33,426 bases of DNA from a virus (Duplodnaviria > Heunggongvirae > Uroviricota > Caudoviricetes), in the IMG/VR virus record IMGVR_UViG_2579778982_000017. One strand, written 5' to 3'. This document shows, piece after piece, positions 14,357 through 33,426 of this stretch. The notes beneath the pieces are model-generated. The model had not been told where the DNA came from, did no database searches, and saw only the letters and a list, made by a program, of their open reading frames with translations. The position numbers and the translations under genes were made by a program. Positions within the stretch are counted from its first letter, which is position 1. Each line of letters starts with the position of its first letter.

Positions 14357-14596
14357 ATGAACAATGAAGCATTTTCTCTGACTGAAGCCAGAGAGATGTT
14401 ATCTGTCTGGCGGGAAGCATATCGCGCTATTGCTATTGGCGGTCAGTCATATAAATTTGGTACGCGGCAGTTAACTCGTGCGGATTTATCAGAAGTCAGA
14501 AAAGAGATGGATTACTGGCGTAATGAAGTAGAAAGATTATCAGCAGGTATACGCCGAGGCCCACGAATTAAACGAGTGGTGATAAGAGATTTATGA
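14357..14596 (+). CDS. Head-tail joining protein (lambda gpW-like)
   Basis: 79 aa between terminase and portal; C-terminal DLSEVRKEMDYWRNEVERL...RRGPR parallels lambda W. Confidence 0.65.
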   Translation: MNNEAFSLTEAREMLSVWREAYRAIAIGGQSYKFGTRQLTRADLSEVRKEMDYWRNEVERLSAGIRRGPRIKRVVIRDL

Positions 14597-17224: not shown

Positions 17225-17233
17225 GGTGAGTTT

Positions 17234-17617
17234 ATGCGAGAGTCTTTTTCATTTGAACCAGATAATCTGATTATTTCTGGTGGTATGCCAGCAATTACAA
17301 CAAGTATTAAACTTGCCAGCGGTAAAGTAAATCGAGGTGAGTTGCTTGCTTTTGTCAGTATTGATCAGACAACAAATGTTGTCACTGTGGCACCAATAAA
17401 TCTCTCTGGTGAGGGGGTGGCAAAAGAACCGTATTGTATCGCTCAACATAGTATTGATGCGACTGATTCAGCGCAAGTTGGAACAGCATGGCTGACCGGA
17501 ATGTTCAATGCACATGCGGTTATCCTTCCTGAATCAGCAAAGATTGCCGATGTATATCTGGCTTGCCGGAAGGTTGGGATATTCCTTAATACCGCACAAC
17601 AAAATCCATCTGCATAA
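17234..17617 (+). CDS. Putative head decoration protein (by position between protease and major capsid)
   Basis: 127-aa protein in the lambda gpD position; no clear sequence match recalled. Confidence 0.5.
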   Translation: MRESFSFEPDNLIISGGMPAITTSIKLASGKVNRGELLAFVSIDQTTNVVTVAPINLSGEGVAKEPYCIAQHSIDATDSAQVGTAWLTGMFNAHAVILPESAKIADVYLACRKVGIFLNTAQQNPSA

Positions 17618-17637
17618 TATAAAGAGGTCGTATTTTT

Positions 17638-18681
17638 ATGCCGAATATTGATATTTTTGAACGACGTACAATGCTTGAGCCTGTTATTCAGAATTTCAAG
17701 GCTCGTCGTTTTCTTCTTCGTACCTTTTTTCCTGGTGTTCAGACCTTTAATACAAAGAAAGTTGATCTGGATTTTGTTCGCGGTGGCCGTACTATGGCTC
17801 CGTTTGTTGGTAAAGGTTTTGGCTCAAAAACCGTTGAGCGACGCGGCTTTGTAACGAGAACTCTGGAGCCACCACTTGTTGCACCTGATTTGGTAACAAC
17901 AGCCGAGCTGCTTTTAAACAGGCTTCCGGGTGAGAATATTTACAACGCAAAATCGCCAGCAGAACGAGCCGCCGAGCAATTAGGTAAAGATTTGCTTGAG
18001 CTTGATGAAATGGTTAACCGCCGTGAAGAATGGATGTGTGCACAAGTCTTGTTTACGGGGCAGGTTGATATTGTTGGTGAAGGAGTGGATGACACAGTTT
18101 ATTTTTGGCCTGAAGAGGAAGGAGATAAACCATATCTTGAACTGACAGGTGATGATTTATGGAGTGCAGCAAAATCAGATCCGTTGGTTAATGTTCGCAA
18201 CTGGAGACGTCGGGTATCACTAACTTCAGGTTTTACACCTCGTGTTGCCGTAATGGGCGCAAAAGTTGTTGATGCCTTCGTTAAAAATGAAGCAGTAACT
18301 AAATATCTTGAGAATCGCCGAAAAGAGCTTGGGTATATTGAGCCTAAGGAGTTAGAAGAAGGCGTAACTCATTATGGCAATCTTGAAGGTGTCGATTTTT
18401 ATGGTTACGACGAACTTATTCGCAATGATAAAACAGGAAAACCAGAACCATTAGTACCGGAAGATAAGATCCTCTTTGGCTCTCCTGGTCGAGGAACGAT
18501 GCTGTATGGTGCTGTAGAGCTTGTAGATGACGCCGAAAAGACTCTAACGATTGTTGAGTCACCGCGAGTTCCAGACACCTGGGTAACTCGTAAGCCGGCT
18601 GGCCGTTATGTTGCCATGAAGTCATCTCCACTGCCTAATCCAGGTGTGGCTGATGCCTATCTGGTGGCTAAGGTGGTTTAA
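17638..18681 (+). CDS. Major capsid protein (lambda gpE family)
   Basis: 347 aa; N-terminal RRFLLRTFFPG parallels LFLRLFFRESYPF of lambda E; correct size and position. Confidence 0.85.
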   Translation: MPNIDIFERRTMLEPVIQNFKARRFLLRTFFPGVQTFNTKKVDLDFVRGGRTMAPFVGKGFGSKTVERRGFVTRTLEPPLVAPDLVTTAELLLNRLPGENIYNAKSPAERAAEQLGKDLLELDEMVNRREEWMCAQVLFTGQVDIVGEGVDDTVYFWPEEEGDKPYLELTGDDLWSAAKSDPLVNVRNWRRRVSLTSGFTPRVAVMGAKVVDAFVKNEAVTKYLENRRKELGYIEPKELEEGVTHYGNLEGVDFYGYDELIRNDKTGKPEPLVPEDKILFGSPGRGTMLYGAVELVDDAEKTLTIVESPRVPDTWVTRKPAGRYVAMKSSPLPNPGVADAYLVAKVV

Positions 18682-19074
18682 ATGGCCAGACTGATTAAAA
18701 ATATTGATACGATAAGCCACGGCTCGCTAAAAGCGGGCCGTTTGCTTAATGGGCTAATGGATAACTCCAGAATTGCTGAACTGATTGCGTCAGGACATGC
18801 TATTGCCACCGAAGAGGATGGGGATTTGGCATCGGCCGGGGGCTATGATGCTGCTAAGTTAGCTTTTGAGCATGGATACGCATCTGCTGTTAATGATGCT
18901 GTGGACGCGGGGTTGATTACGCGAACGGAGGCGGGTAGCTGTGTATTCGAGGTTGAGTTTGAGGATGATGGCGGCAATGAGGAAACGGTTGCTGATGATT
19001 CATCTGAATCTGTAGCTACTTCTGATACCAGTAATGCGAAAAAATCAACGCAAAAAAAAGGTAATAATAAGTAA
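18682..19074 (+). CDS. Hypothetical head-associated protein with acidic C-terminus
   Basis: 130 aa, starts 1 nt after the capsid stop; function unassigned. Confidence 0.5.
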   Translation: MARLIKNIDTISHGSLKAGRLLNGLMDNSRIAELIASGHAIATEEDGDLASAGGYDAAKLAFEHGYASAVNDAVDAGLITRTEAGSCVFEVEFEDDGGNEETVADDSSESVATSDTSNAKKSTQKKGNNK

Positions 19075-19418
19075 TGAACTCCTTCAAAGAGGTTATAGCG
19101 CAAGATATTTCTGCAATATTCCTCAATGAAAAAGAGTTTGCCAATACATATAACATAGACGGCAAGGATATCCTTGCCGTTATTGATACAGACCTTATTC
19201 ATGAGCGGAATAAACGCTCATATGCTGAGTTTGCAGAGGGAATAAATCAGGGGCAAATAATATTATTTGTTTCAAGAAAAGATTTTCCTGTTCTCCCAGT
19301 CAAAGACCAGTCAATGAAAATCAACGGTAAAAATTATATTGTTGATGAAGTATCAGATAATGTTGGTGTATTGGAAATAACTCTCACTGTTAATACTAAC
19401 AGAGGAATGCCGATTTGA
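19074..19418 (+). CDS. Putative head-tail connector/completion protein
   Basis: 114-aa ORF overlapping neighbours, between capsid and sheath genes; positional inference only. Confidence 0.45.
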   Translation: MNSFKEVIAQDISAIFLNEKEFANTYNIDGKDILAVIDTDLIHERNKRSYAEFAEGINQGQIILFVSRKDFPVLPVKDQSMKINGKNYIVDEVSDNVGVLEITLTVNTNRGMPI

Positions 19419-19900
19419 TTAATCTTTTGATAGATGCAATAAAAAATCGGTTGGAACATGAGGTTTTCCATGATTTATTAGTGCAGGGACCTCCTTATGA
19501 TGAAACAGACAGCGATATTAAATTGTTTGTTCCAACAATATTTAAAGGGTACTTGCCTCCTAAATCACAACCATCTCCAGATAAACCGCCAGAATTTCCT
19601 CATGTGATTATCAGGCCCACGGAAGGAGGAATGCAGCCTGAAACGGATGAAGTTAAGGTTAAGTTTCTTCTAGGTGGTTTTTGTGAGGACCATACTGGAT
19701 ATGAATGGGTAATGGCTCTTCTTGAAAGGATGATGTTTCATTTTCAGGAGAGGCCTTTACTTGAAGAGAAATTTCTTTTTCAGGGCGATATCAGATGGCG
19801 AATGTTTGATGATCAACCGTATCCATATTGGATAACGGAAGCAACTGGAACGTGGCTAGTATTAAAGCCTCAGAATATTCAGTCTCAGGAGTTTATCTAA
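19415..19900 (+). CDS. Putative head-tail connector / tail completion protein
   Basis: 161-aa ORF in the same coupled array; positional inference only. Confidence 0.45.
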   Translation: MINLLIDAIKNRLEHEVFHDLLVQGPPYDETDSDIKLFVPTIFKGYLPPKSQPSPDKPPEFPHVIIRPTEGGMQPETDEVKVKFLLGGFCEDHTGYEWVMALLERMMFHFQERPLLEEKFLFQGDIRWRMFDDQPYPYWITEATGTWLVLKPQNIQSQEFI

Positions 19901-20191
19901 ATGGCTAATAAGAAAAGTAGTAAAGAAGATATAGAAAAGAAGGAAGATGTTGCTCAAACATTTGTATATATAGGACCAACAATCCCTCAACTCTCAATTT
20001 TGAAGCATAAATTATTTAAGAATGGCTTATCTCCAGAGTGTAAAAAATTAATATCACATATTCCTGGTGCAAAGTGTTTGTTTGTGGCAACCAGTGATTT
20101 TGCAGATGCAGAGAAAAGACTTTCTGATAAAACCAGTGTCGAGTATGTAATGTACTCTAGAGTTTCTTCTTCTATCATGGAGATTAAATAA
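19901..20191 (+). CDS. Hypothetical protein preceding the tail sheath
   Basis: 96-aa ORF; stop overlaps the sheath start. Confidence 0.4.
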   Translation: MANKKSSKEDIEKKEDVAQTFVYIGPTIPQLSILKHKLFKNGLSPECKKLISHIPGAKCLFVATSDFADAEKRLSDKTSVEYVMYSRVSSSIMEIK

Positions 20192-21654
20192 TGGGATATC
20201 GCCACGGTATTTATATATCTGAGCTGGCTACATCTATAACTCCTCCAGTGCAAGTTAGTGCTGGGTTGATTGTCGCATTTGGTACGGCTCCTGTTAATCA
20301 GTTAGAAGATCCAGCCTCAGCGGTAAATAAACCTATCATTGCTTATACATACGCAGAGGCCGTATCTAAAATAGGATATAGCACAAACTTCGAGAAATAT
20401 ACTTTAAGCGAAGTAATTAAAGTCGCATTTGGAATATATGGTGTTGCGCCAGTTGTATTTATCAATGTGCTTGATCCAGCAAAGCATAAGAAAGACGTTA
20501 CTGATGAGTTAGTAAAACTTTCTGGCGGGAAAGGTACGCTCTCTAACGATGGTGTCTTATATAAATCTGTTGTTGTGAAAAAAGCAGATGGTGATTCGCC
20601 TGGGTTAACGGTTGATACCGATTATGTGCTGGCGCTGGATGATAATGGCTATACGGTCATTACAGCTATTAGCGGAGGAAAAATTACCGAAAAAGACGCT
20701 ACTCTTAAGGTTAGTTATACGCATCTTGATCCCGGTGCCGTAACTAAAAATGACATTATCGGTGGTGTGGATTCCAACACTAAAGCCAATACAGGGCTTG
20801 AGTTACTGTCAGATGTGTATCCCCGCTTCAAGTTAGTTCCTGGACAAGTGATTGCACCTGGATTTAGTTCTGATAGTGAAGTTGGTCAGCTAATGGCGGC
20901 TAAAGCCGCGCTGATTAGTGAATTGTTCAAAGCAGAAGCTATAACGGATGCGCCGACCGATAAATCTACTATCAGTGATTACTCGGCTGTTCCTGAATGG
21001 AAACAGAACAATAATCACATGGCCGCTAACCAGACAGTGTGCTGGCCGATGGTGAAACTTGGTGACAATATTTACCATCACTCAACCCATTTAGCGGCCG
21101 CAACATGCTTGCTGGATAGTCAGTATGGTGATATTCCATCACGTTCTCCGTCAAATATAAAACTACAGATGGACGGTGCTGTACGTAAAGATGGCAGTGA
21201 AGTATGGCTTAACATTAGCCAGGCAAACTACTTAAATGGACAGGGGATTGTAACAAGCCTTAATTTTGATGGTTGGAAATCATGGGGAAACCGTAATGCT
21301 ATTTATCCAACATCTACAGACCCCAAAGACGCATTTCGTGTTTGCCGACGTATGTTTAACTGGGTGGGTAATACGTTAATTCTTTCGCATTGGTCAAAAA
21401 TAGACAATCCTGCAAACCGTCGATTAATTGAATCGATTGTTACAAGTGCGAATATTTGGCTTAACGGCCTCACAGGTAATCAGGATATTGCAGGTGGTGT
21501 TGTTACCTTTGATCAGTCTGAAAACACGATTACGTCATTGATGGACGGGATTGTTAAATTCCATGTAAAAATGACACCATTCTCACCTGCCAGAGATATA
21601 GAGTTCGTCATGGAATATAATCCTGATTATCTGCTGAACTTGTTTTCTGAATAA
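20191..21654 (+). CDS. Contractile tail sheath protein (P2 FI-like)
   Basis: 487 aa, N-terminus MGYRHGIYISEL like sheath N-termini (P2 FI begins with a YHHG-type motif as I recall); followed by tube, chaperone and tape measure. Confidence 0.85.
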   Translation: MGYRHGIYISELATSITPPVQVSAGLIVAFGTAPVNQLEDPASAVNKPIIAYTYAEAVSKIGYSTNFEKYTLSEVIKVAFGIYGVAPVVFINVLDPAKHKKDVTDELVKLSGGKGTLSNDGVLYKSVVVKKADGDSPGLTVDTDYVLALDDNGYTVITAISGGKITEKDATLKVSYTHLDPGAVTKNDIIGGVDSNTKANTGLELLSDVYPRFKLVPGQVIAPGFSSDSEVGQLMAAKAALISELFKAEAITDAPTDKSTISDYSAVPEWKQNNNHMAANQTVCWPMVKLGDNIYHHSTHLAAATCLLDSQYGDIPSRSPSNIKLQMDGAVRKDGSEVWLNISQANYLNGQGIVTSLNFDGWKSWGNRNAIYPTSTDPKDAFRVCRRMFNWVGNTLILSHWSKIDNPANRRLIESIVTSANIWLNGLTGNQDIAGGVVTFDQSENTITSLMDGIVKFHVKMTPFSPARDIEFVMEYNPDYLLNLFSE

Positions 21655-21670
21655 ATAATAGGAGGTTGCT

Positions 21671-22192
21671 TTGAGCAATCAAATTCCTGAGAGACTTATT
21701 AACTTTACAGTATACGGTGAGGGAAACCGTATTATCGGTGTTGCTGACGCAAAGCTGCCATCAATCGAGATGATGACAGAGACAGTTAGTGGTGCAGGTA
21801 TTGCTGGAGAGCTTGAGAGCGGAACGCTGGGGCATTTCAAACCAATGACCGTCTCTCTTAAATGGCGAACCCTAACCTCTGCTGGTACAAAATTATTTCT
21901 ATCCTCATCGCATCAGGTAGATTTTCGTGGTAGCCAGCAGGTTTATGATGCCGGAACAGGAAAATATAAAACGGTTCCCATTCGGGCTTCAATGAAGCTA
22001 AACCCTAAAAAACTGGATTTAGGTTCGCTACAGGTGGCAAAGGCTACTGATTCAGAGAATGAATTTGAAGTTCTCTATATCAAATTATTTATTGATGGAA
22101 AAGAAGTCCTGGAAATTGATAAATTGAACTTTATTTGTATCTTCGATGGTGAAGATATATTAAAAAGCGTTCGTGATGATTTAGGTTTATAA
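21671..22192 (+). CDS. Tail tube protein (P2 FII-like)
   Basis: 173 aa directly after the sheath; TTG start 5 nt after GGAGG. Confidence 0.75.
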   Translation: MSNQIPERLINFTVYGEGNRIIGVADAKLPSIEMMTETVSGAGIAGELESGTLGHFKPMTVSLKWRTLTSAGTKLFLSSSHQVDFRGSQQVYDAGTGKYKTVPIRASMKLNPKKLDLGSLQVAKATDSENEFEVLYIKLFIDGKEVLEIDKLNFICIFDGEDILKSVRDDLGL

Positions 22193-22201
22193 GGTGACAA
22201 A

Positions 22202-22483
22202 ATGGAAACCGTTAAATTAAGTAAAGAGTATCGTTTTGAAGACTTCGAGCCGGTGACTGAACTCAACCTTGATTTAGACAACCTAAAAGGCAGCGATATT
22301 TTAGAAGTATCGGACTTACTACAATCTCAAGGGCATGTTACAGTTCAAACATCACTTGATCATAAAGTCCACGTTGCTCTGGCTGCTCGCTGTATTGGCC
22401 GTCCGATAGAGTATCTGAATGGATTGCCAGCGAAAGACTTTGTTAAAGTTTGCCAAAAGGTACAGAATTTTTTGCTCTCGTAG
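22202..22483 (+). CDS. Tail assembly chaperone (P2 gpE / lambda gpG analogue); -1 frameshift would extend translation to 22632
   Basis: 93 aa between tube and tape measure; slippery T_TTT_TTG at 22468-22474 enters the overlapping -1 ORF (22450-22632) that ends 6 nt before the tape measure start. Confidence 0.7.
   Translation: METVKLSKEYRFEDFEPVTELNLDLDNLKGSDILEVSDLLQSQGHVTVQTSLDHKVHVALAARCIGRPIEYLNGLPAKDFVKVCQKVQNFLLS
22468..22474 (+). other. Programmed -1 ribosomal frameshift slippery heptamer (T TTT TTG)
   Basis: X_XXY_YYZ heptamer in the 0 frame, 7 nt before the chaperone stop; the -1 frame stays open for ~50 further codons. Confidence 0.6.
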
Positions 22484-22637
22484 GTTTTGATGAGCAAAAA
22501 CCTATTGATAAGCAAATAATGAGGGCCGCGAGTTCTCTATCTCAATCATCTCAATCAACACCTATATCCTACTGGCTTTCGCTTCGGTTGAGGCGAATCG
22601 TCGCATGGATTGACGTGTTTAATGAGGATTAATACTA

Positions 22638-25430
22638 ATGGCCAGCAATAAGAACTTTAAGCTGGCTTTTGAAATTGGCGGCAAAGTTGCCGCCTCTCTC
22701 CCCAAAAGTTTTACTACAGCTAATCAGGCTGTTGCTAAATTAAATGCCGAGCTTGCTGGATTAACGAAAGAACATGGGGAAATTCAAAAGCTACAATCTG
22801 TAAAAGTAAAGGTTGGACAGACTGCCCTCGAATATCATAAAGCTGCCGCTCGCGTTGAAGAGTTACAGAAGCAAATAAAAAACACGGCCAATCCAACCAG
22901 AGCGATGCTTCGTGACTTTGAGAAGGCAAAAACACATTCATCAAATTTACGAGCATCACTACGTTCTCAGCGTGAAGAACTGGCCGCTTTAAAGTCTGCG
23001 TATCAGGGAGCTGATACATCTGCCAGAGCTTTGGCCTCAAGAGAGAAAGAGCTTAAAGCAAGCATTGATCGTAATCGTGAGGCTCAGGCCCGTAGCGTTG
23101 AGCAGGTTAACCGCTACAGAACAGCTTTGGCTTTAGCCAGAGCAAATGTTCAGCAAGTGAAAAAACAGCAGGAGGAACTTAACCGGGCATTAGAAAAACA
23201 ACGTATTGATAAAATTAACAGCTATAAAAATGCGTTGGCTGAAGCACGGAAAAATGTTCTTGCAGTAAAACGTGCTCAGGAGGAGTTAAACCGCGCGTTG
23301 GAAAGGCAGCGTGAATTGAAGCGAGAGCATCTTGGTGAGGCAAAGAGTCAACTTGTAAGGTCAGGATTACAAACTGGTGCTGTAGCGGCTGGTGCATTTG
23401 CTGCTGCTAACAATGCAGCAAATTTCAATCGTGAAAACAAAATGATTGGTCTTACGGCAGATATGAAGCCGGAAGAAGTTCAGGCGATGGGGCAGGCGAT
23501 GCTTGTTACCGGAACGGCCACCAACCAGTTTGCATCTGATATTCAGGCCGCTCAGGGTTTTCTCGTCGCTGCTGGGCAGGATTATAAAGAGGCTCAGGCG
23601 AATCTACTAACTATTGGGCGAACAGCTACAGCTACTGGCTCTGATATCCTCGATGTCTCGAAAGCATCATTTACATTAAGTGACTCATTGAAGATTGATC
23701 CATCTCAAATGAAGTCTGCAATGGGGATTCTGGTTCAGGCAGGGAAAGAGGGAAACTTTGAATTTAAAGATATGGCCAAAAATCTTCCTGTGCTTGGTGC
23801 TCAGTTCCAGGCATTAAAAATGGGAGGTAAAGAAGCCGCCGCGACGATGGGGGCAGCTTTGCAGATAGCTCGCAAAGGTGCTGCAACTTCGGATGAGGCT
23901 GCTAATAATATGAACAACTTTTTGGCGAAAATACTTTCCCCTGAAACACTAAAAAAAGCAAAGAAAAATTTCGGTGTAGATTTATATAAAATTGTCACAA
24001 CAGCGCAGAAAAAAGGGAAGAATCCATTCGAAGCTGCAATGCATTCTGTCATGAAAATGACTAAGAACGGAGATCAGAAGTTACTTGGTGAGCTATTTGG
24101 CGATATGCAGGTTCAGAACTTTGTTCGTCCGATGATTCAAAACTGGAAGGAATACCAGAGAATCAAAGCAACATCTCTTGGGGCTGGAAGTGCTGTTATT
24201 GACCGCGATTTTGCCAATATAACGAAAGACAATGCGGAGCGATTGAAACAATTACGTATTCAGGCTAGCAATGCATCATTAAGTTTTGGTCAGGCCTTGC
24301 AACCAGCTTTGAATGCCGCGCTTAGTGTTTTGGTTCCGCTGATTACAAAAATTAGTGAATTTGTAGCTAACAACCCCAATTTTGTGTCTCAGATTGTGAT
24401 GGCGGCAGGTGCGTTTCTAACCATGAAAAGTGTGGTTATAGCGTGTAGGGTAGCTATGCTGGCTTTATCTGTAGCGACAAAGCTAACACCCTTCGGGTGG
24501 ATTCAGATGGCTATATCTGCACTGGTTGCCGCAGGAATATTGCTCTATCAGAATTGGGATAAGATCAGAGATTATGCTGTCAGAGTTTGGCCTTCTGTTA
24601 AGGAATATACAGTTAAATCATTTGAGGCTATAAAAAACTTTATCTTAAACTTTGACCTCAATGGATGGATTATATCTATGTTTGGTAAAGCATGGGATTA
24701 TCTTTCCAACATAAACTGGAGTTCGGCAGGAGTAAGAATTTACAGTACATTAATTAGTGCTTTTAAATGGATGTCTCCGCTTCCGTTCTTAATTAAAGCA
24801 TTTAAACTTACAACAAATTACCTTTCTGGCATTAACTGGAGCGAAACAGGAAAGAAAATCATAGATACACTGGTATCTGTTTTTATGCGTTTTTCACCAG
24901 TTGGACTCTTTATAAGAGCATTCCAATCTGTAACGGCTTATTTATCTGGAATAAACTGGAGTGAGTCAGGTGCAAAAATAATTGAGACGTTAATCACTGG
25001 GATAAAATCAAAAGCAAATGCTTTAATTAATGAAGTGAAAGGCGTTTTTTCTTCTGTACGTGAGTATTTACCGTTCTCTGACGCGAAAAAAGGTCCATTC
25101 TCACAGCTAACAAAGTCAGGTGGTGCAATAATGACTACTCTGGCATCAGGTGTTAGCAGGAATAACAGCTTACAAAATGCAATAGCAACCAAGTTCGGGC
25201 AATCAAATTTATCACCTCACGGGATATCTGCCGCCGGGACTTCTGGACCTCGCCAGAACGTTAACGCTGTGACTGGTGGAATAACCTATTCACCTGTAAT
25301 CAATCTTCCGGCTGGTTCACCAAAGGAAACTGAGGCGGCAGCTAAAAGAGCATTAGATGCTGGATATTCTGATTTTGAGAAGAAATTGAGTGCTCATATG
25401 TTCCAACAACGGAGATTAAGTTTTGGATGA
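22638..25430 (+). CDS. Tail tape measure protein
   Basis: 930 aa, Ala/Gln-rich coiled-coil N-terminal half, hydrophobic middle, internal tandem repeats (YLSGINWSE..GxKII.TL three times). Confidence 0.85.
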   Translation: MASNKNFKLAFEIGGKVAASLPKSFTTANQAVAKLNAELAGLTKEHGEIQKLQSVKVKVGQTALEYHKAAARVEELQKQIKNTANPTRAMLRDFEKAKTHSSNLRASLRSQREELAALKSAYQGADTSARALASREKELKASIDRNREAQARSVEQVNRYRTALALARANVQQVKKQQEELNRALEKQRIDKINSYKNALAEARKNVLAVKRAQEELNRALERQRELKREHLGEAKSQLVRSGLQTGAVAAGAFAAANNAANFNRENKMIGLTADMKPEEVQAMGQAMLVTGTATNQFASDIQAAQGFLVAAGQDYKEAQANLLTIGRTATATGSDILDVSKASFTLSDSLKIDPSQMKSAMGILVQAGKEGNFEFKDMAKNLPVLGAQFQALKMGGKEAAATMGAALQIARKGAATSDEAANNMNNFLAKILSPETLKKAKKNFGVDLYKIVTTAQKKGKNPFEAAMHSVMKMTKNGDQKLLGELFGDMQVQNFVRPMIQNWKEYQRIKATSLGAGSAVIDRDFANITKDNAERLKQLRIQASNASLSFGQALQPALNAALSVLVPLITKISEFVANNPNFVSQIVMAAGAFLTMKSVVIACRVAMLALSVATKLTPFGWIQMAISALVAAGILLYQNWDKIRDYAVRVWPSVKEYTVKSFEAIKNFILNFDLNGWIISMFGKAWDYLSNINWSSAGVRIYSTLISAFKWMSPLPFLIKAFKLTTNYLSGINWSETGKKIIDTLVSVFMRFSPVGLFIRAFQSVTAYLSGINWSESGAKIIETLITGIKSKANALINEVKGVFSSVREYLPFSDAKKGPFSQLTKSGGAIMTTLASGVSRNNSLQNAIATKFGQSNLSPHGISAAGTSGPRQNVNAVTGGITYSPVINLPAGSPKETEAAAKRALDAGYSDFEKKLSAHMFQQRRLSFG

Positions 25431-25641: not shown

Positions 25642-26632
25642 AACGCTTTTTGATGTTATATATCAGAATGTAAATATTACCGCTCATATGTCACCTGATG
25701 TTTTGTCAATGTCTTATACAGATAATGAAGATGGTCAGGTCGATGATATTTCTATTATATTAAAAAATGATGATGGGAAATGGTCTGGAGACTGGACACC
25801 TAAAAAGGGTGATTTTATTGATTTGAGCTTTAAGCCTATAAATCAAATCGTCCTTGAGTGCGGGAAATTCCAGGTAGATGGCATAACTTGCTCTGGACCA
25901 CCTTCTGTTGTTGAGGTGACTGCTGTTTCTGTTCCTGTTTCATCAGGCATTAGACGTGATTTAAAAAGTAATGCATGGGAAAAAACAACTCTTAAAGATA
26001 TAGCAACTTCTATAGCTAAATTAGCTAACCTTGAACTGTTGTTTCTTATTGATGGTGATAGTAATCCATATTATGCGCGTGAAGATCAAATGGAGGAAAG
26101 CGATTTAAAATTTCTCCATCGACTTTGCCAGGATGAAGGGTTGTCGTTAAAGGTCACTGATAGCCAATTAATAATATTTGCTCAAGAGATGTTTGAGCAA
26201 AAAGATCCTATCGCTACGCTTACGTTAGGTATTGATGAGATAATCAGATATAGCTTTAGCACACAATCTACAGATTTGTATAAAAGTTGCACGTGCAAAT
26301 ATCGCGTACCTAAAAAAAGAAAGTCGCTTTCGTATACTTGGGTAGATCCATCCGTAGAAGAAGGGTCGAATCTTAAGATAAGAAAACTGGTAGCTAATTT
26401 AGATGAAGCAAAACGTAAGGCAAAGGCTGCTTTGCGGCTTAAAAATAGATATCAAAATACAGGATCTTTAGTATTGGTTGGAGACACCAGATTGGTAGCT
26501 GGTGTAACTATAAATCTGGACGGATTCGGTTCATTTTCTGGAAAATATCTTATATCGAAAGCTGTGCATTCAATTGGGGGTAGTGGTTATACCACCTCGA
26601 TTGATGTCCGAAGAGTAATTAATGGGTATTAA
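25631..26632 (+). CDS. Tail protein D (P2 gpD-like)
   Basis: 333 aa following the X-like gene, as in P2-like and R-pyocin tail modules (U-X-D); GTG start as in the track. Confidence 0.6.
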   Translation: MLRKTLFDVIYQNVNITAHMSPDVLSMSYTDNEDGQVDDISIILKNDDGKWSGDWTPKKGDFIDLSFKPINQIVLECGKFQVDGITCSGPPSVVEVTAVSVPVSSGIRRDLKSNAWEKTTLKDIATSIAKLANLELLFLIDGDSNPYYAREDQMEESDLKFLHRLCQDEGLSLKVTDSQLIIFAQEMFEQKDPIATLTLGIDEIIRYSFSTQSTDLYKSCTCKYRVPKKRKSLSYTWVDPSVEEGSNLKIRKLVANLDEAKRKAKAALRLKNRYQNTGSLVLVGDTRLVAGVTINLDGFGSFSGKYLISKAVHSIGGSGYTTSIDVRRVINGY

Positions 26633-26634
26633 TT

Positions 26635-27255
26635 ATGAATGATTTAGAAACATTATTACGTCAGACTATAAGAGTTGGCGTTGTTTCTGATATTGATGAT
26701 GGTGATGTTACAGCAAGAGTTACTTTCGATGATCAGGATAACGTCACTTCGGCAAAGTTATCAGTTATTGTGAAAAATACGGATAAGAATGCTGATTACT
26801 GGATGCCAGATATTGGTGAGCAAGTTTTGTGTATCTTTCATCCCGCAGGGCCGCAACAAGGTTTTATTCTTGGTAGTTTTTATGATGAAACACAGAAGCC
26901 ACCATCTAATACGGTTAATAAACGCGTCATTAGATTTAATAACGGAACTCGTATTGAGGTAGACAGAGAATCTAATTTACTCCTTGTTGATGCTGTCGGA
27001 GATGTAACCGTTAAGGCTACAGGAACCGTAACTATTGATGCTCCAGAAACCATCATTACCGGAAATGCTACAGTTGAAGGATTACTAACCTTCAAAGGTG
27101 GAATGAAAGGATCTTCTGCTGGAGGTGTTGCAGCTACAATTTCTGGGGATGTTAAGGTTGTTGGTGGTGATATAGATGTTGATGGGATTAAATCTAAAGG
27201 CCACCATCACACAGCTCAGGGGGAATACGCTCCGACAACGGAGGCTCAGGCATGA
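26635..27255 (+). CDS. Baseplate spike / assembly protein V (P2 gpV-like)
   Basis: 206 aa; GEQVL, LTFKGG and C-terminal KSKGHHHT resemble P2 gpV features as I recall them. Confidence 0.75.
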   Translation: MNDLETLLRQTIRVGVVSDIDDGDVTARVTFDDQDNVTSAKLSVIVKNTDKNADYWMPDIGEQVLCIFHPAGPQQGFILGSFYDETQKPPSNTVNKRVIRFNNGTRIEVDRESNLLLVDAVGDVTVKATGTVTIDAPETIITGNATVEGLLTFKGGMKGSSAGGVAATISGDVKVVGGDIDVDGIKSKGHHHTAQGEYAPTTEAQA

Positions 27256-27719
27256 TTGTGGGTATGCTTGGTACAATGCCTTTTGTTGCCTCATCAATAG
27301 TGGTGAATACGTTCAACAATTTTAAAAGGACGTCAAAGCGTCGTGTAGCGCGCCATGATGTTATTGGGCTTAAACCTGTTCTGGAGGATATAGGTCCAGA
27401 TCTGGATGAAGTTAGTTTTAATATGCGGTTGGATACAACACTTGGCATTGTTCCATTGGCTGCGCTTTCATTACTTAGGACAATGCAATCAATTCAGGAA
27501 GTAAATCCTGTTGTAATTGGTATTCAGTATTTTGGTAATTTTATAATTACAGATATAGAGGAATCATGGACTTATTTCGGTCCAACTGGGAATCCACGAG
27601 TGATAATCGTCGGCATTAAATTACAGGAAGTCGGACAGACCTCTCTGAAAGAAGCATTAGTTGATATTGCTGGCAATATAGAGTCAAAAACTAGAAGTGC
27701 GTTAGGTAAATTATTATGA
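27252..27719 (+). CDS. Tail protein, possibly P2 gpU-like
   Basis: 155 aa between V-like and W-like genes; hydrophobic N-terminus MIVGMLGTMPFVAS loosely resembles my recollection of the gpU start. Confidence 0.4.
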   Translation: MIVGMLGTMPFVASSIVVNTFNNFKRTSKRRVARHDVIGLKPVLEDIGPDLDEVSFNMRLDTTLGIVPLAALSLLRTMQSIQEVNPVVIGIQYFGNFIITDIEESWTYFGPTGNPRVIIVGIKLQEVGQTSLKEALVDIAGNIESKTRSALGKLL

Positions 27720-28036
27720 ATAATACGTTTACCATATCATCACCTTCTTACTCGATTGATTGGTCGCCCAAAACAGTTGTAGAAGAAGTTTTGCAAAATG
27801 TCTCTACTATTATTAATACTCAGATTGGCACTGTACCATATGCCAGAAAATTAGGAGTTAATTCAAGTCTTGTTGATAGCCTCAGCCCAATTTTTATTGC
27901 TACAGCAACACGAGAAATAATTCAAAAAATTAGTGAGTTTGAGCCTAGAGCGATTATCCATTCTGTTACTTTTGAAAGAACGGACGTTTCTGATGGTTTT
28001 ATTAGGCCAAAACTTGTGATAGGAGTTAGAGAATGA
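27716..28036 (+). CDS. Baseplate wedge protein (P2 gpW / T4 gp25-like)
   Basis: 106 aa directly upstream of the J-like gene; size and order match the gp25/GPW family. Confidence 0.7.
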   Translation: MNNTFTISSPSYSIDWSPKTVVEEVLQNVSTIINTQIGTVPYARKLGVNSSLVDSLSPIFIATATREIIQKISEFEPRAIIHSVTFERTDVSDGFIRPKLVIGVRE

Positions 28037-29157
28037 CGTTGCCGCGCGGTGGTTTGCCAGATATTACTTTCGCAGATTCTAACCCGACTGATATAACAAC
28101 TCGTTCAATCAGGGCTTTTGAGAGTATAACAGGTGAAACATTAGCACCTGCTGATCCACGTAGATTATTCATCTTATCATTGTGTGAGATTATTATACAG
28201 CAAAGAAAAGCTATCGATTTTTCTGCAAAACAAAACCTTCTTACATATGGTGAAGGTGAATATCTCGACCATATAGGCTATCTGACGGATACGCCTAGGC
28301 TGGAAGCTCAATCTGCCTTGACTACATTTGAGTTTAATCTGTCAACAAAATTATCGGGGATATATACAATACCTGCTGGCACTCAAATTTCAACTGGAAA
28401 TAGTGTTATTTTCCAAACAGATGTTTTGTTGGAAATACCAGCTGGGAAAACAGTTGGTACAGTCTCAGGATATGCTGTTATACCTGGTTTATCGGGGAAT
28501 GGCTTTTTACCAGGGCAAATAAATGAGTTGGTGACTCCGTTGCCGTATGTTTCCAGCGTAAGGAATCTAACAACATCTAATTCTGGTGCTGATACAGAGT
28601 CAGATGATAATTATGCTGAAAGAATAAAACTTTCGCCGGAAAAACTATCTACAGCAGGGCCGGAGGATTCTTATAAATATTGGACAAGAACAGCCAATCA
28701 GAATATAAAAGATGTGAATGTATATACACCATCGCCCGGAACTGTAGAAATCCGTTCTTTGTTAGAGAACGGAGATATACCTTCTGATGAATTATTAGAG
28801 CAGATAAATAGCGTTCTCTCTGCAACTAATATTCGACCATTCACAGATAAAGTTCTTGTTAAGAAACCAGAGAGCGTTGAATACGATATAATAATTAAAT
28901 ACTGGATTAACTCATCGGACAAAAACAGAACAACTTTAATTCAAAGTGAGGTTGAGAAAGCTATTGATGAGTATAAACAATGGCAACGTTCGGTTATGGG
29001 AAGAGATATAAATCCAGATGAAATTATTCAACGTTTAAAAAATGCCGGGGCTAAAAGATTAGAAATATCAAGTCCTGTATTTACTGTGGTTGGAGAGACG
29101 CAGGTCGCCAGAGAGAGAAATATAAATTGCCAGTATGCGGGGTTAGAGGATGGCTGA
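28033..29157 (+). CDS. Baseplate protein J (P2 gpJ-like)
   Basis: 374 aa between the W-like and I-like genes. Confidence 0.7.
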   Translation: MTLPRGGLPDITFADSNPTDITTRSIRAFESITGETLAPADPRRLFILSLCEIIIQQRKAIDFSAKQNLLTYGEGEYLDHIGYLTDTPRLEAQSALTTFEFNLSTKLSGIYTIPAGTQISTGNSVIFQTDVLLEIPAGKTVGTVSGYAVIPGLSGNGFLPGQINELVTPLPYVSSVRNLTTSNSGADTESDDNYAERIKLSPEKLSTAGPEDSYKYWTRTANQNIKDVNVYTPSPGTVEIRSLLENGDIPSDELLEQINSVLSATNIRPFTDKVLVKKPESVEYDIIIKYWINSSDKNRTTLIQSEVEKAIDEYKQWQRSVMGRDINPDEIIQRLKNAGAKRLEISSPVFTVVGETQVARERNINCQYAGLEDG

Positions 29158-29731
29158 TATCTTTAATGTTAGCTTGTTGGATGTTTTACCTCCTAACTTA
29201 GCTAGAGATCCCAACGTGATAGCTATGTCGAAAGCTATCGATGATGAACTACAAGCAATTAACAATTTAATATATAAGACAGAAATATATAGCGTTGTTG
29301 ATAACCTGGATTCAGTTGTTCTCGATCATTTAGCCTGGCAATGGAATGCTGATACATGGAGGGATAGTTGGCCTGTATCGTTAAAGCGTTCTGTTTTTAA
29401 ATCAATAATACGAACAAAGCGAATAAAGGGTACAAGGGCAGCGGTTGAAGATGTAGTAAATAGCTTGGGTGGAGAGGTAAACATAACAGAATGGTTTGAA
29501 ACATCACCACCTGGCGAACCATATACAGCCTCAATTGTTGCTTCGATTAACTCTTTTGATGGTGCCGTTCCTTCGAAAGAGATGTTGGAAGATACGTTAA
29601 GAAGTATCAAGAGCGCAAAGTCGGCAAGAACATTATTTACATTTTCGCAAGCAGCCAATGTTTCTGGTGGTGTCGGTATTGTTGGTGCTTGTCAGCCTGT
29701 GTCTTATGTACGATTAATTGGCGAGTGCTAA
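29150..29731 (+). CDS. Tail protein I (P2 gpI-like)
   Basis: 193 aa; LAWQWNADTWRDSWPVSLKRSVFKSIIRTKRIKGTRAAVEDVVNSLGGEVNITEWFE aligns well with the central P2 gpI region as I recall it. Confidence 0.85.
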   Translation: MADIFNVSLLDVLPPNLARDPNVIAMSKAIDDELQAINNLIYKTEIYSVVDNLDSVVLDHLAWQWNADTWRDSWPVSLKRSVFKSIIRTKRIKGTRAAVEDVVNSLGGEVNITEWFETSPPGEPYTASIVASINSFDGAVPSKEMLEDTLRSIKSAKSARTLFTFSQAANVSGGVGIVGACQPVSYVRLIGEC

Positions 29732-29761
29732 TTCGCAATTTGTTAATTCAAGGAATTAAGC

Positions 29762-31996
29762 GTGAGTAAATTATTATTTACGATGACTGACGCCGGGCGT
29801 CAGGAGCTGATTAATGCCAACAAAACAGGAACAAATAAAGTTGAGATTGTTTCTGTTGGTTTAGGTAGTAGATATTATGTCACGTCAACTTCACAAACAA
29901 ATATAACAAACGAAATAAAACGACTTACCACAATAGGTGGCAAAGTTGTTTCCCCTGATACAATTCATGTAACAGCGAAGGATGATAGTAAAGATGAGTA
30001 CGTTGTCCATACAATAGGATTGTATACGAATAAGGGTACGTTGTTTGCTGTATACTCACAAGAACAAGCAATAATAAATAAAGCATCATCTACTATCGCT
30101 TTAATATCAAGTGATATAGCAATTAAAACTCTTGATACTAAAAATATTACATTTGGTGATATTGAGTTTATTAATCCTCCCGCGACCGAAACTGTTGTTG
30201 GGGTGGCAAGATTTGCTAATGAACAAGAAATTGATGCAGGTACAGATGATTCCCTTGCTGTTTCAGCAAAGCGGCTTAAGCAAGCCATTGTGAAACATGA
30301 GCAATCACGTAATCATCCTGATGCAACTTTAACCTCAAAAGGCTTTGTTCAACTTAGCTGCGCCACCAATAGCACGTCTGAAACGCTTGCTGCGACGCCT
30401 AAGGCTGTTAAGGCAGCATATGACCTGGCTAACGCTAAATACACCGCACAGGACGCTACCACAGCGCGAAAAGGGATTGTTCAGCTCAGTAGTGCCACCA
30501 ACAGCACGTCTGAAACGCTGGCAGCAACACCAAAGGCTGTTAAGGCAGCGTATGATCTTGCGGCCGGAAAGGCTCCGTCCAATCACACGCATTCGTGGGA
30601 GCAGATAACAAATGTGCCTGTAGCTTCACTGACTGTAAGGGGAATAACTCAGCTCAGTAGTGCCACCAACAGCACGTCTGAAACACTGGCCGCGACATCG
30701 AAAGCTGTAAAGGTGGTAATGGATGAAACGAACAAGAAAGCGCCCCTGAACAGTCCGGCGCTGACCGGAACACCAACAACACCAACTGCGCCAAAAGGTA
30801 CTAACAATACTCAGATCGCAAGCACGGCTTATGTTATGGCTGCGATCGCTGCCCTCGTGGACTCGTCGCCTGACGCACTGAATACGCTGAACGAGCTGGC
30901 TGCGGCGTTGGGCAATGACCCGAATTTTGCGACCACCATGACTAACGCGCTTGCGGGTAAGCAACCGAAAGATGCCACCCTGACGGCGCTGGCCGGGCTT
31001 GCTACTGCGGCAGACAGGTTTCCGTATTTTACGGGGAATGATGTCGCCAGCCTGGCAACTCTGACAAAAGTCGGGCGGGATATTCTTGCGAAATCGACCG
31101 TTGCCGCCGTTATCGAATACCTCGGTTTGCAGGAAACGGTAAACAGGGCTGGTAACGCCGTGCAAAAAAATGGCGATACCTTGTCCGGTGGGCTTACTTT
31201 TGAAAATGACTCAATCCTTGCTTGGATTCGAAATACTGACTGGGCGAAGATTGGATTTAAAAATGATGCCGATGGTGACACTGATTCATACATGTGGTTT
31301 GAAACAGGCGACAACGGCAATGAATATTTCAAATGGAGAAGCCGCCAGAGCACCACAACAAAAGACCTGATGACGCTGAAATGGGATGCACTAAATATTC
31401 TGGTAAATGCCGTCATTAATGGCAGTCTTGGAGTTGGTACGACGAATGCGTTAGGTGGTAGCTCTATTGTTCTTGGTGATAATGACACCGGATTTAAACA
31501 GAATGGAGACGGTATTCTGGATGTTTATGCTAATAGTCAGCGTGTATTCCGCTTTCAGAATGGAGTGGCTATTGCTTTTAAAAATATTCAGGCCGGGGAT
31601 GGTAAAAAATTCACGCTATCCAGCTCCAACACCTCCACAAAGAATGCAACGTTTAATTTATGGGGTGCTTCAACCCGTCCAGTAGTTGCAGAGTTAGGCG
31701 ATGAGGCAGGATGGCATTTCTATAGCCAGCGAAATACAGATAACTCGGTAATATTTTCTGTTAACGGTCAGATACAGCCCAGCAACTGGGGGAATTTTGA
31801 TTCACGCTATGTAAAAGATGTTCGCCTGGGTACGCGTGTTGTTCAATTGATGGCGCGTGGTGGTCGTTATGAAAAAGCCGGACACGCAATTACCGGATTA
31901 AGAATCATTGGTGAAGTAGATGGCGATGATGAAGCCATCTTCAGACCAATACAAAAATACATCAATGGCACATGGTATAACGTCGCACAGGTGTAA
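29762..31996 (+). CDS. Tail fibre protein (P2 gpH / Mu S-like) with repeats and an invertible C-terminal portion
   Basis: 744 aa; GTG start as in the track; three copies of the (Q)LS.ATNSTSETLAATPKAVK fibre repeat; C-terminus [14 protein letters not shown]...[14 protein letters not shown] also found in the oppositely oriented partial ORF at the window end. Confidence 0.85.
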   Translation: MSKLLFTMTDAGRQELINANKTGTNKVEIVSVGLGSRYYVTSTSQTNITNEIKRLTTIGGKVVSPDTIHVTAKDDSKDEYVVHTIGLYTNKGTLFAVYSQEQAIINKASSTIALISSDIAIKTLDTKNITFGDIEFINPPATETVVGVARFANEQEIDAGTDDSLAVSAKRLKQAIVKHEQSRNHPDATLTSKGFVQLSCATNSTSETLAATPKAVKAAYDLANAKYTAQDATTARKGIVQLSSATNSTSETLAATPKAVKAAYDLAAGKAPSNHTHSWEQITNVPVASLTVRGITQLSSATNSTSETLAATSKAVKVVMDETNKKAPLNSPALTGTPTTPTAPKGTNNTQIASTAYVMAAIAALVDSSPDALNTLNELAAALGNDPNFATTMTNALAGKQPKDATLTALAGLATAADRFPYFTGNDVASLATLTKVGRDILAKSTVAAVIEYLGLQETVNRAGNAVQKNGDTLSGGLTFENDSILAWIRNTDWAKIGFKNDADGDTDSYMWFETGDNGNEYFKWRSRQSTTTKDLMTLKWDALNILVNAVINGSLGVGTTNALGGSSIVLGDNDTGFKQNGDGILDVYANSQRVFRFQNGVAIAFKNIQAGDGKKFTLSSSNTSTKNATFNLWGASTRPVVAELGDEAGWHFYSQRNTDNSVIFSVNGQIQPSNWGNFDSRYVKDVRLGTRVVQLMARGGRYEKAGHAITGLRIIGEVDGDDEAIFRPIQKYINGTWYNVAQV
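30336..30700 (+). repeat. Three imperfect tandem ~115-130-bp coding repeats inside the tail fibre gene
   Basis: DNA repeats beginning near 30340, 30472 and 30640, each encoding the ATNSTSETLAAT...KAVK unit; they generate the spurious ORFs 30335-30592 (-) and 30345-30608 (+). Confidence 0.8.
31110..31135. other. Candidate site-specific recombination crossover site (gix/cix/hix-like) for a Gin/Cin/Pin/Hin-family invertase
   Basis: TTATCGAATACCTCGGTTTGCAGGAA matches the Mu gix sequence as I recall it (TTATCCAAAACCTCGGTTTACAGGAA) at 23 of 26 positions, with the ACCTCGGTTT core identical; it lies inside the fibre ORF. Confidence 0.6.
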
Positions 31997-31999
31997 ATT

Positions 32000-32533
32000 A
32001 TGCAGCATTTAAAAAATATTAAGTCCGGAAATCCAAAAACAAAAGAACAATATCAGCTAACAAAGAATTTTGATGTTATCTGGTTATGGTCCGAAGACGG
32101 TAAAAACTGGTATGAAGAACAAAAGAACTTTCAGGAAGACACAATAAAGCTAGCTTACACAGCAGAGGGAATTATTGTTGCTATTGATAAGGATGTATCG
32201 GCAATTAATCCAGAAGGTTTAAGCGTTGTTGAGTTGCCTGATATAACAGCCAATAGACGGGCTGATATTTCGGGTAACTGGATGTTCAAAGATGGCGCGG
32301 TGATAAAGCGAACTTATACCGAGGAAGAGCAGCGACAACAAGCGGAAAATGAAAAACAAAGCCTGTTGCAACTTGTCAGGGACAAAACCCAGCTATGGGA
32401 CTCACAGCTACGGCTGGGCATCATTTCCGACGAGAATAAACAAAAATTAACCGAGTGGATGCTCTATGCGCAGAAAGTCGAATCTACAGACACCTCCAGC
32501 CTGCCAGTAACATTTCCCGAACAACCTGAATGA
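32000..32533 (+). CDS. Tail fibre assembly protein (Mu U / P2 gpG / Tfa-like)
   Basis: 177 aa immediately after the fibre gene; paralogue on the opposite strand at 32562-33089. Confidence 0.85.
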
Positions 32534-32536
32534 GAC

Positions 32537-32564
32537 AAGGCCCGATAGCGGGCCTTAATTTTTA
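32537..32564 (+). terminator. Hairpin between the convergent fibre assembly genes
   Basis: AAGGCCCG-ATAG-CGGGCCTT perfect 8-bp stem followed on the + strand by AATTTTTA. Confidence 0.55.
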
Positions 32565-33089
32565 TTCAGGCTTTTGTGGCCATTCAGGATTTGCCGTATC
32601 CACACGGTTGACCAGAACACTGTAGCGTTCCCATGCTTCCAGTCGTGTGCGTTCCTCGTCTGTTGCCATATTCAGCCTGACAGCGCGTTCCAGCGGCTGG
32701 ATGACTGATTCAGCTTCGGAAAGCAATGCGGCCTTTTGTGATTCAGCTTGTTGTTGCTGTTCGTCTGCCGTATAAATCCGTTTAACCACAGCACCATCCT
32801 TAAACATCCATTTACCTGAGTCGTCAGCACGTCGGTTGGAGGTAATATCAGGAACCTCAACAACGCTAAAACCTTCAGGATTAAGCGTTGAAGCATCTCT
32901 GGTGATAGCGACTATAATCTGATTTTTATCGTAAACAATCTTTATGGTGTCTGGCTGAAAGTTTTTCACTTCCTCATACCAGTTTTTTTCGTCCTCAGAG
33001 TAAAGCCAGATGACTCCGTGCTTCTTTGTTAACTCATACTGTTCCAGTGTTTTAGCATTACCCACTTTTATGTTCTTTAAGTGCATCAT
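32562..33089 (-). CDS. Alternative tail fibre assembly protein (U'-like), inverted orientation
   Basis: 175 aa on the - strand; about half the residues identical by eye to 32000-32533 ([58 protein letters not shown]). Confidence 0.85.
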
Positions 33090-33090
33090 A

Positions 33091-33426
33091 TTAAACGCTC
33101 GCTATATTATACCAGGTGCCATTTATATACTTTTGAACGGGTCTGTAATAAACGCCCGCTATATTATCGGCAGAGTTGGACCCTGTATCCTGAACATTAA
33201 TACCAGACAATACATGACCTGAAGGGCACTGGAAATTCCATGTTTGCCAGTTGTTCACTCCATAATATTGCTGTGAACCAAGTCGAACATCTTTCACATA
33301 TCTGGAGTCAAAATTGCCATAGTTTCCGGGAATAACTTGCGAGCCGCAAAGCCAGTTCCCGTTATTATCCATGTACGCCTGACCATCGGTGCCATTGGCT
33401 GTCCTTGAGTTATTAATCATGTAGAT
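33091..33426 (-). CDS. Alternative tail fibre C-terminal segment (Sv'-like), 5' end beyond the window
   Basis: - strand ORF stays open to the window edge; encodes [14 protein letters not shown]...[16 protein letters not shown], matching the + strand fibre C-terminus with a different middle part. Confidence 0.75.

Follow-up and report, generated by a model that had tools for sequence, protein, structure and literature searches.

The stretch of DNA analysed here (the window; 33,426 nt, the entire contig JICA01000183.1) very probably ends inside an invertible host-range segment of the Gin/Cin/Pin type (Din family), carried by a temperate myovirus of about 48 kb that persists in E. coli as a plasmid. 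The window contains most of a segment of the Mu/P1 type and is cut off before the second crossover site and the invertase gene. A preliminary description of this DNA had recognized the layout of the Mu G segment, the P1 C segment and the e14 P region, and all of the parts in question (constant fibre region, site, tip, chaperone, inverted chaperone and inverted tip) were found to match.

Fibre gene, left crossover site and the two arms

The tail-fibre gene (S/H-like, 744 aa; 29762-31996, + strand) is a single open reading frame, with three Phage_fiber_2 matches (E = 1e-54) and one to Gp34_trimer in Pfam. Its constant part, Sc, comprises codons 1-454 on the + strand up to the crossover, and is fused in frame, in the window itself, to the variable tip now expressed, Sv (codons 455-744; 31124-31996, + strand), which is P2 H-like. 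Over residues 176-744 the fibre shows 84% identity to P2 gpH, and the entire protein is 98.8% identical to the fibre of the Yersinia phage vB_YpM_44. A tandem-repeat finder returned nothing in the fibre region.

The left crossover site is of the gix type and is located at 31110-31135 on the + strand, with outer half TTATCGAATACC, core TC at 31122-31123 and inner half GGTTTGCAGGAA. The whole 26-bp sequence (TTATCGAATACCTCGGTTTGCAGGAA) shares 23 of its 26 positions, including the core, with Mu gix (TTATCCAAAACCTCGGTTTACAGGAA), which bears out the gix-like 26-mer within the fibre ORF that had been reported earlier. This is the sole match in the window at up to three mismatches, with none expected (100 shuffles). 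The site spans fibre codons 450-458, and the core forms bases 2 and 3 of the codon for Leu454 (...VIEYLGLQE...). The G-segment boundary annotated in the Mu record is the same central TC, and the 15 nt that adjoin the site on its segment-inward side (ACGGTAAACAGGGCT) are identical in Mu. In the phage-plasmid of ATCC 25922, for which inversion is documented, the left site is the same at all 26 positions. However, the site alone is not diagnostic, because the non-invertible gene H of P2 keeps almost the same 26-mer (TTATCGAATATCTCGGTTTACAGGAA, two mismatches from that of the window). The 26-mer was therefore rejected as stand-alone proof of invertibility, and the argument is carried by the layout and the inverted duplicate genes. 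No second site, including secondary sites of the Min or shufflon type at the chaperone genes, was found in the window at up to eight mismatches (with the left site, Mu gix, the right site of the family and P7 cixR as queries), because the contig stops about 0.7 kb short. The contig passes unbroken through the left site, and thus one orientation dominated the sequenced culture.

Downstream of the fibre gene is U (177 aa; 32000-32533, + strand; Pfam Caudo_TAP, E = 3e-35), which serves the expressed tip as assembly chaperone. The protein is a chimera: residues 1-40 are identical to P2 G, and residues 101-177 are 100% identical to Mu U'. The inverted paralogue U' (175 aa; 32562-33089, - strand; Caudo_TAP, E = 5e-38) is intact in the window, shows 56% identity to U and is silent in the present orientation. 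U' is 88.6% identical to P2 G and likewise to Mu U, and its first 60 residues show 92% identity to SfMu U'. The two chaperone genes form inverted repeats, in which 31999-32158 pairs with 32931-33090 and 32171-32347 with 32742-32918. Between these convergent genes, a terminator scan found a G+C-rich hairpin (AAGGCCCGATAGCGGGCCTT; 32537-32556) followed by a T run, which is probably the terminator for whichever arm is read; terminators are annotated at the equivalent place in the D108 record.

The last feature of the window is the 3' end of the alternative tip, Sv' (33091-33426, - strand), which consists of 111 codons and a stop, intact, without an internal stop or a start of its own. In the list of open reading frames it starts at an internal ATG (33091-33420), but the reading frame, which matches that of Sc, really stays open as far as 33426, the final base of the window. 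Sv' is 97% identical to the tip of the SfMu fibre after inversion in silico (G(-)-type) and 65% identical to the Mu S tip, and the DNA of this region is 97.4% identical to tail-fibre genes of E. coli prophages. Promoter-like sites, tested for a promoterless tip on the opposite strand, were not enriched (four found, nine expected). The earlier claims of a + strand fibre assembly gene followed by a - strand paralogue, and of a - strand alternative fibre C-terminus running off the window, thus both stand.

Relatives, the right site and the two orientations

The structural genes of the window are 98.9-99.8% identical to those of the Yersinia phages vB_YpM_39, vB_YpM_41 and vB_YpM_44, and the region 26000-33426 is 95-97% identical to repA-bearing E. 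coli plasmids of about 48 kb. The identity to vB_YpM_44 is unbroken across 29700-33195. Six distinct complete relatives were used, namely the three Yersinia phages and three E. coli phage-plasmids (pFDN11_2, pGPT24-02-C and the ATCC 25922 plasmid, the last covered by five records), with 95-99.8% identity where compared. Another plasmid, pSLy3, was excluded from the family, as it belongs to the SSU5 supergroup and is unrelated. In the searchable literature we found no account of this family of ~48 kb phage-plasmids or of its switch, and no experiment on the family.

Exactly two sites, inverted to each other, exist in all of the complete relatives. The right site is TTCGCAAAAACC|TC|GGTTT[A/G]CAGGAA, inverted and 3.05-3.13 kb from the left site. 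The outer half-sites are constant among the relatives, always TTATCGAATACC on the left and always TTCGCAAAAACC on the right. A serine recombinase gene begins about 65-80 nt beyond the right site in every complete relative. Its product (184 aa) has Resolvase (E = 4e-44) and HTH_7 domains, keeps Ser9 and Met114, and is 55% identical to Gin; among solved structures its closest match is Gin (3uj3; E = 2e-61), and gamma-delta resolvase gives 1e-30.

Since the right site and the invertase are absent from the window, for this element they are only inferred. By proxy, scaled from the relatives, the right site would be about 0.67-0.8 kb and the invertase about 0.75-1.5 kb past position 33426; these estimated positions fall within the bracket of 0.5-1.5 kb predicted in the preliminary description. 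Past the missing ~690 nt of Sv', we would expect TTCCTG[C/T]AAACCGAGGTTTTTGCGAA, a recombinase gene of about 555 nt and then repA. No Fis-binding enhancer was recognized by aligning the 5' ends of the relatives' invertase genes with gin and cin, an alignment in which only coding conservation was seen and for which Fis sites are too degenerate. Exact-match scans with the last 44 bases of the window gave no match among genome contigs and 67 loci among viral contigs, none of which is this element beyond 33426; the best viral matches are other phages with the same fibre tip.

Inversion itself is recorded in NZ_CP032086.1, in which the ATCC 25922 plasmid occurs twice, head to tail. The two copies are offset by exactly 48,488 bp and share 99.97% identity. 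They are collinear apart from one block of 3,071 bp, which is reversed, and so both orientations of the segment were present in one culture. A SNP in the inner half-site changes sides between the copies, with the outer halves unmoved, and therefore the crossover occurred at site positions 10-19, core included. The four single-copy assemblies of this plasmid share one orientation, that of copy 1. When the segment was inverted in silico with the cut at the core, an intact full-length alternative fibre ORF (772-831 aa) resulted in five family members, and an intact alternative ORF was also left in Mu and SfMu. It is in these close relatives only, and not in the window, that the right site, the invertase, the intact post-inversion fibre ORF and both orientations in one culture are seen.

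Comparison of other members and of other elements also speaks for inversion. The segment of pFDN11_2 matches that of vB_YpM_39 in reverse orientation (94% over 2,272 nt). The Sv tip of the window is also found in pFDN11_2, in pGPT24-02-C, in a P2-like chromosomal prophage and in a P1-like plasmid, each time in the inverted slot, which is silent. In the latter two, the window cassette is flipped relative to Sc at 95-96% identity; homology to the prophage sets in at the site (window base 31106), and homology to the plasmid at about 31172.

According to the model that we favour, the fibre gene would be read from its own upstream signals through Sc, which is joined at the 26-bp site to whichever tip and chaperone face it. 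The gene for a small serine recombinase would lie beyond the contig, immediately past the distal end of the segment. Dimers of this enzyme would bind the two inverted 26-bp sites, cut the central TC/GA dinucleotide, rotate and religate, and so turn over about 3.05-3.1 kb. Sc would then be fused in frame to Sv', with U' co-transcribed, and the progeny phage would carry a different receptor-binding tip (SfMu S'-like in place of P2 H-like). The cleavage chemistry and the dependence on Fis and its enhancer would be those established for Gin and Hin.

Alternative explanations and known systems

The segment might instead be a locked relic, in which the 26-mer persists solely because it encodes ...IEYLGLQE..., either the invertase or the right site has been lost, and U' and Sv' are passengers that are never expressed. 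P2 H, without an invertase or an inverted duplicate, does retain its slightly altered 26-mer, the window includes neither a second site nor a recombinase, and the contig is unbroken at the left site. We nevertheless regard such a relic as improbable, as neither U' (175 codons) nor the Sv' fragment (111 codons) is disrupted and every complete relative examined has kept the right site and the invertase. In addition, action in trans between elements is documented for Din-family invertases (PMC12529663). As is also well established, those of co-resident prophages can act in this way, and loss of the invertase in cis would thus not necessarily lock the segment.

More improbable still is an inversion by RecA-dependent homologous recombination between the inverted repeats of about 75 bp around the sites, with no part for a serine recombinase. 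These repeats reach about 57 nt into the segment past the 26-bp site, and the inverted chaperone paralogues of the family have evidently undergone homologous recombination with each other. However, the crossover between the two ATCC 25922 copies is confined to the outermost 10 nt of a 73-nt homology, exactly where the core lies, an interval that a uniformly placed homologous exchange would hit about one time in seven; a Gin-like invertase adjoins the site in every relative, and the homology with other phage types begins at the site. The explanation to which we give the least credence is an assembly chimera, in which the contig end joins the fibre genes of two prophages in the same genome and the inverted genes are foreign to the element. 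Fibre-tip and chaperone sequences are indeed repeated in E. coli (1-5 copies per genome for a query of 887 nt and 1-10 for one of 7.4 kb), and the contig ends inside such a repeat, but family members known as closed circular plasmids or as complete phage genomes show the identical gene order, and the identity to vB_YpM_44 is continuous up to 33195.

The gene order expected for the invertible segment (Sc, site, Sv, U, U', Sv', site, invertase) is that of the G segment of Mu and SfMu, which is served by Gin. The U'-Sv' arm of the window shows 88-91% DNA identity to SfMu, the segment of the relatives is 89% identical to SfMu G over 3.1 kb, and U and U' of the window are 86-89% identical to Mu U' and Mu U, respectively. 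Whereas Mu is a transposable phage, the segment here belongs to a plasmid-prophage whose baseplate and tail are of the P2 type. Sc comprises 454 aa, compared with about 165 aa in Mu; in the relatives, the invertase has only 55% identity to Gin, the right outer half-site is TTCGCAAAAACC, and the invertase gene is followed by repA in place of com and mom. The C segment of P1 and P7, with Cin acting at cix, is likewise an invertible fibre segment of a plasmid-prophage with the site inside gene S, and the U'-Sv' arm of the window is 90-94% identical to the DNA annotated there as U' and 'Sv prime'. However, cix differs at six of the 26 positions and has a TT core region (CCTTGG), cin is on the opposite strand, the C segment amounts to 4.0 kb in the P7 record, and the P1 genome (~94 kb) is otherwise unrelated.

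The H-G region of P2 is 90% identical at the DNA level, the start of U is the start of gpG, and the baseplate order V-W-J-I-H-G is common to both; P2, however, has neither the inverted U'/Sv' arm nor an invertase, and shows what a relic site looks like. The e14 P region (Pin) and p15B (Min) resemble the present case in that Din-family invertases flip fibre C-termini in E. coli elements, but e14 is a defective chromosomal prophage, and p15B has six sites and many isomers, whereas only two sites per element were found in this phage-plasmid family.

Possible further shuffling and host range

It is conceivable, though we consider it rather doubtful, that the family has more than two fibre states, through the invertase flip combined with homologous exchange between the inverted chaperone paralogues. 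The first layer of such a system may be the flip itself, by a separate invertase lineage (55% identity to Gin) that acts on gix-type sites, the right one of which has a divergent outer half. In the second, the exchange may re-sort the C-terminal modules of the chaperones and, among some members, the terminal codons of the tips as well; the chimeric U of the window may be one product, and the U/U' core, flipped reciprocally between vB_YpM_41 and vB_YpM_44, another. If the chimeras work, the segment would represent a small, site-independent shuffling system, and shuffling of this kind, if real, could broaden the host range of a plasmid-borne phage over Escherichia, Shigella and Yersinia.

In other respects this is a textbook inversion system, and the understanding of DNA inversion systems is unchanged by it. 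Relatives were isolated as plaque-formers on Yersinia pestis and the plasmids reside in E. coli, and therefore the switch is a plausible contributor to the spread of the plasmid-prophage across genera. For annotation and host-range prediction, the fibre of this phage-plasmid is best treated as two alternative proteins; the pseudogenes annotated in the RefSeq relatives as 'partial tail protein, missing N-terminus' are the silent arm of the switch.

Fibre gene, crossover site and inverted arm

The fibre ORF of the window (29762-31996, + strand, in the ORF listing) contains the left crossover site, a 26-mer read directly from the region as TTATCGAATACCTCGGTTTGCAGGAA at 31110-31135 (+ strand). The site spans codons 450-458 (VIEYLGLQE), with its core within codon Leu454, at which the constant part of the fibre, Sc, is joined in frame to a variable tip, Sv, resembling that of P2 H. 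The chaperone gene U begins 3 nt past the stop codon. Based on the ORF listing and a domain search, both U (32000-32533, + strand; 177 aa) and U' (32562-33089, - strand; 175 aa, 56% identical to U) encode Caudo_TAP proteins, and a terminator scan found a G+C-rich hairpin with a T run at 32537-32556, between these convergent genes. Besides this intact second chaperone, the opposite strand carries the 3' end of a tip similar to S' of SfMu, Sv', which lacks its own start codon; its translation (33091-33426, - strand) consists of 111 codons and the stop, with a frame still open where the window ends. The site within the fibre ORF (by direct reading, ORF listing and mismatch scans), the assembly gene on the + strand, its paralogue on the - strand and the open - strand tip are thus all confirmed as first described.

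With up to three mismatches allowed, TTATCGAATACCTCGGTTTGCAGGAA occurs once in the window (and not at all in 100 dinucleotide-preserving shuffles), and scans allowing up to eight mismatches, with the window's own site, Mu gix, the family right site and P7 cixR as queries, again returned 31110-31135 alone. The two sites in the Mu record are TTATCCAAAACCTCGGTTTACAGGAA, with the annotated G-segment boundary on the central TC; 23 of the 26 positions of the window site equal those of Mu gix, the core is shared, and the next 15 nt inside the segment are also equal. The left site of the ATCC 25922 plasmid equals that of the window at all 26 positions. Phage P2 gene H, which lacks both an inverted arm and an invertase and is not invertible, nevertheless carries TTATCGAATATCTCGGTTTACAGGAA (L077, the P2 gene H locus, 2096-2121), with only two mismatches to the window site. 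A gix-like 26-mer within a fibre ORF is therefore by itself no evidence of inversion: the site from which the preliminary description argued is real, but alone it is not diagnostic, and the argument for inversion rests on the intact inverted arm of U' and Sv' and on the family context. The 26-mer of P2 gene H resembles a remnant left by an invertible ancestor or donor.

The system is a switch of a known type, that of Mu G, P1 C and e14 P, as had been proposed, and its cassettes share DNA homology with those segments. It differs from them in its carrier, a plasmid-prophage of roughly 48 kb with P2-type tail genes, in its long (454 aa) and mosaic Sc, and in the invertase of its relatives, which lies on a separate branch of the family. 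A search of the accessible literature found no paper on the switch in this phage-plasmid family, which is absence of evidence only. Near 30,300 (between about 30,200 and 30,400), the G+C content of the fibre gene steps up from about 0.38 to about 0.53, close to the onset of similarity to P2-family H genes, at about 30,330 for P2-like phages and about 30,650 for P2 itself; the span of about 30,330-30,720 contains three Phage_fiber_2 repeats. Judging from the sequence, the G+C step is a mosaic junction at which a native, AT-rich N-terminus gives way to a fibre shaft and tip acquired from elsewhere.

Right site and invertase in complete relatives

The complete relatives have exactly two sites each, inverted to each other and 3.05-3.13 kb apart, with outer half-sites TTATCGAATACC on the left, within the fibre gene, and TTCGCAAAAACC on the right. 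About 65-80 nt past the right site begins a 555-nt gene annotated as 'DNA-invertase hin' or 'recombinase family protein'. Its product has Resolvase and HTH_7 domains, keeps Ser9 and Met114 and is 55% identical to Gin; of the solved structures, Gin (3uj3) matches it best, at E = 2e-61, with gamma-delta resolvase at 1e-30. A comparison with 50,697 phage records placed the invertase at 95% identity or more in the Yersinia phages vB_YpM_39, 41 and 44 only, and P1 Cin and Mu Gin at 55-56%. With SfMu and the P2-like prophage of E. coli C311, which share the Sv' tip of the window, as proxies, the right site of the window is estimated to lie about 0.67-0.8 kb, and its invertase about 0.75-1.5 kb, past 33426. 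Alignment did not reveal any recombinational enhancer.

Going by these relatives and by the established mechanism of Gin and Hin (e.g. PMC3575834), invertase dimers would bind both sites, synapse with the aid of Fis and an enhancer, cut the 2-bp core via Ser9 and, with a 180-degree rotation completed, reseal the DNA; Sc would then be fused to Sv' and U' co-transcribed. The invertases of co-resident prophages may also work in trans (PMC12529663).

Inversion and its alternatives

When the DNA between the cores was reversed in silico, each of the five family members tested was left with an uninterrupted alternative fibre of full length (772-831 aa); Mu and SfMu likewise gave an intact one. The segments of pFDN11_2 and vB_YpM_39 match at 94% over 2,272 nt in reverse orientation between collinear flanks, and the expressed tip of the window is the silent tip in pFDN11_2 and pGPT24-02-C. 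Both orientations occur within one culture, in the record NZ_CP032086.1 (pL25922_3 of ATCC 25922, 94,204 bp; comparison loci L079, 8207-11292, and L082), which consists of two head-to-tail copies of a 48,488-bp phage-plasmid with fibre gene starts exactly 48,488 bp apart. Save for one reversed block of 3,071 bp, the fibre segment, the copies run collinear at 99.97% identity. RefSeq lists two distinct full-length fibre proteins (WP_341485483.1 and WP_145772481.1) and two distinct 'partial' pseudogenes for this record, and likewise calls the silent Sv' arm a pseudogene ('incomplete; partial in the middle of a contig; missing N-terminus') at three comparison loci (L070 10812-11819, L071 11177-12202 and L078 10265-11191). 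In the plasmids of the relatives, this 'pseudogene' is the promoterless alternative exon of the switch.

The same record bears on whether RecA might have inverted the segment by recombination between the repeats of roughly 75 bp. The outer half-sites are unmoved between the copies, and the one base that differs in the inner half-sites (G or A, site position 20) switches sides; the exchange therefore took place between site positions 10 and 19, core included. A homologous crossover placed uniformly in the 73-nt repeat would hit these positions about one time in seven, and the mapped crossover makes a RecA-mediated inversion very improbable. An assembly chimera is the least probable explanation, being contradicted by the closed relatives. 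Somewhat less remote, although still unlikely, is that this individual element is a locked relic like P2 H; its silent arm is intact, and site and invertase are uniformly present in its relatives, both of which speak against a relic.

Exchange of modules and the carrier element

The Sv-U-U'-Sv' cassette of the window recurs at 95-96% identity in the P2-like chromosomal prophage of E. coli C311 (L086) and in a P1-like plasmid, pMB5646_3 (L085). Both carry it inverted with respect to the constant fibre part and beside a recombinase gene of their own; homology to the window sets in at the site (base 31106) in the prophage and at about 31172 in the plasmid. With one cassette in two unrelated phage backbones, the module has been exchanged horizontally as a whole, with the site as its boundary. 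Exchange within the segment is also indicated. The window's U is chimeric, with aa 1-40 identical to P2 G and the last 77 residues (aa 101-177) 100% identical to Mu U', so that a P2 H-like tip is paired with a chaperone whose C-terminal module is of the other chaperone type. Between vB_YpM_41 and vB_YpM_44 (L001 and L073), the U/U' core is flipped (97% identity in reverse) while the tips on either side are collinear, and vB_YpM_44 has a 216-nt, 95% inverted repeat over its tip ends and chaperone starts (L001 8243-8458 and 9231-9446). These patterns suggest homologous exchange or gene conversion between the inverted paralogues or arms. According to the published model of Mu Tfa (PMC9608196), the fibre is bound by the N-terminal domain, whereas trimerisation depends on the conserved C-terminal one as its driver; chimeric chaperones may thus stay functional.

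The window is the complete contig JICA01000183.1 (assembly GCA_000691105.1), and its end falls 336 nt into the silent tip, in sequence of which many E. coli prophages have copies that are up to 97% identical; the break was thus probably caused by an assembly repeat rather than by the crossover site. Positions 10,928-25,000 are 98.9-99.8% identical to vB_YpM_39, 41 and 44 (49 kb circular genomes), and positions 26,000-33,426 match, at 95-97% identity, a set of E. coli plasmids (about 46-49 kb) that have repA beside their tail genes, the 48,488-bp ATCC 25922 plasmid among them. The element is therefore a plasmid-prophage with a P2-type baseplate module, which has the order gpD, V, a GpU-like protein, a small ORF, J and I before the fibre. 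The lysis genes are a holin (3096-3539) and a GH108 endolysin (3809-4351), and directly downstream of them is a tRNA-Met gene (anticodon CAT; 4920-4995). An ORF for an MT-A70-type methyltransferase occupies 5304-5891, and two adjoining ORFs at 8052-10048 have weak ParB_N matches slightly under the Pfam cut-off, the second also matching a methyltransferase domain; these ORFs may serve anti-restriction or epigenetic functions of the phage-plasmid.
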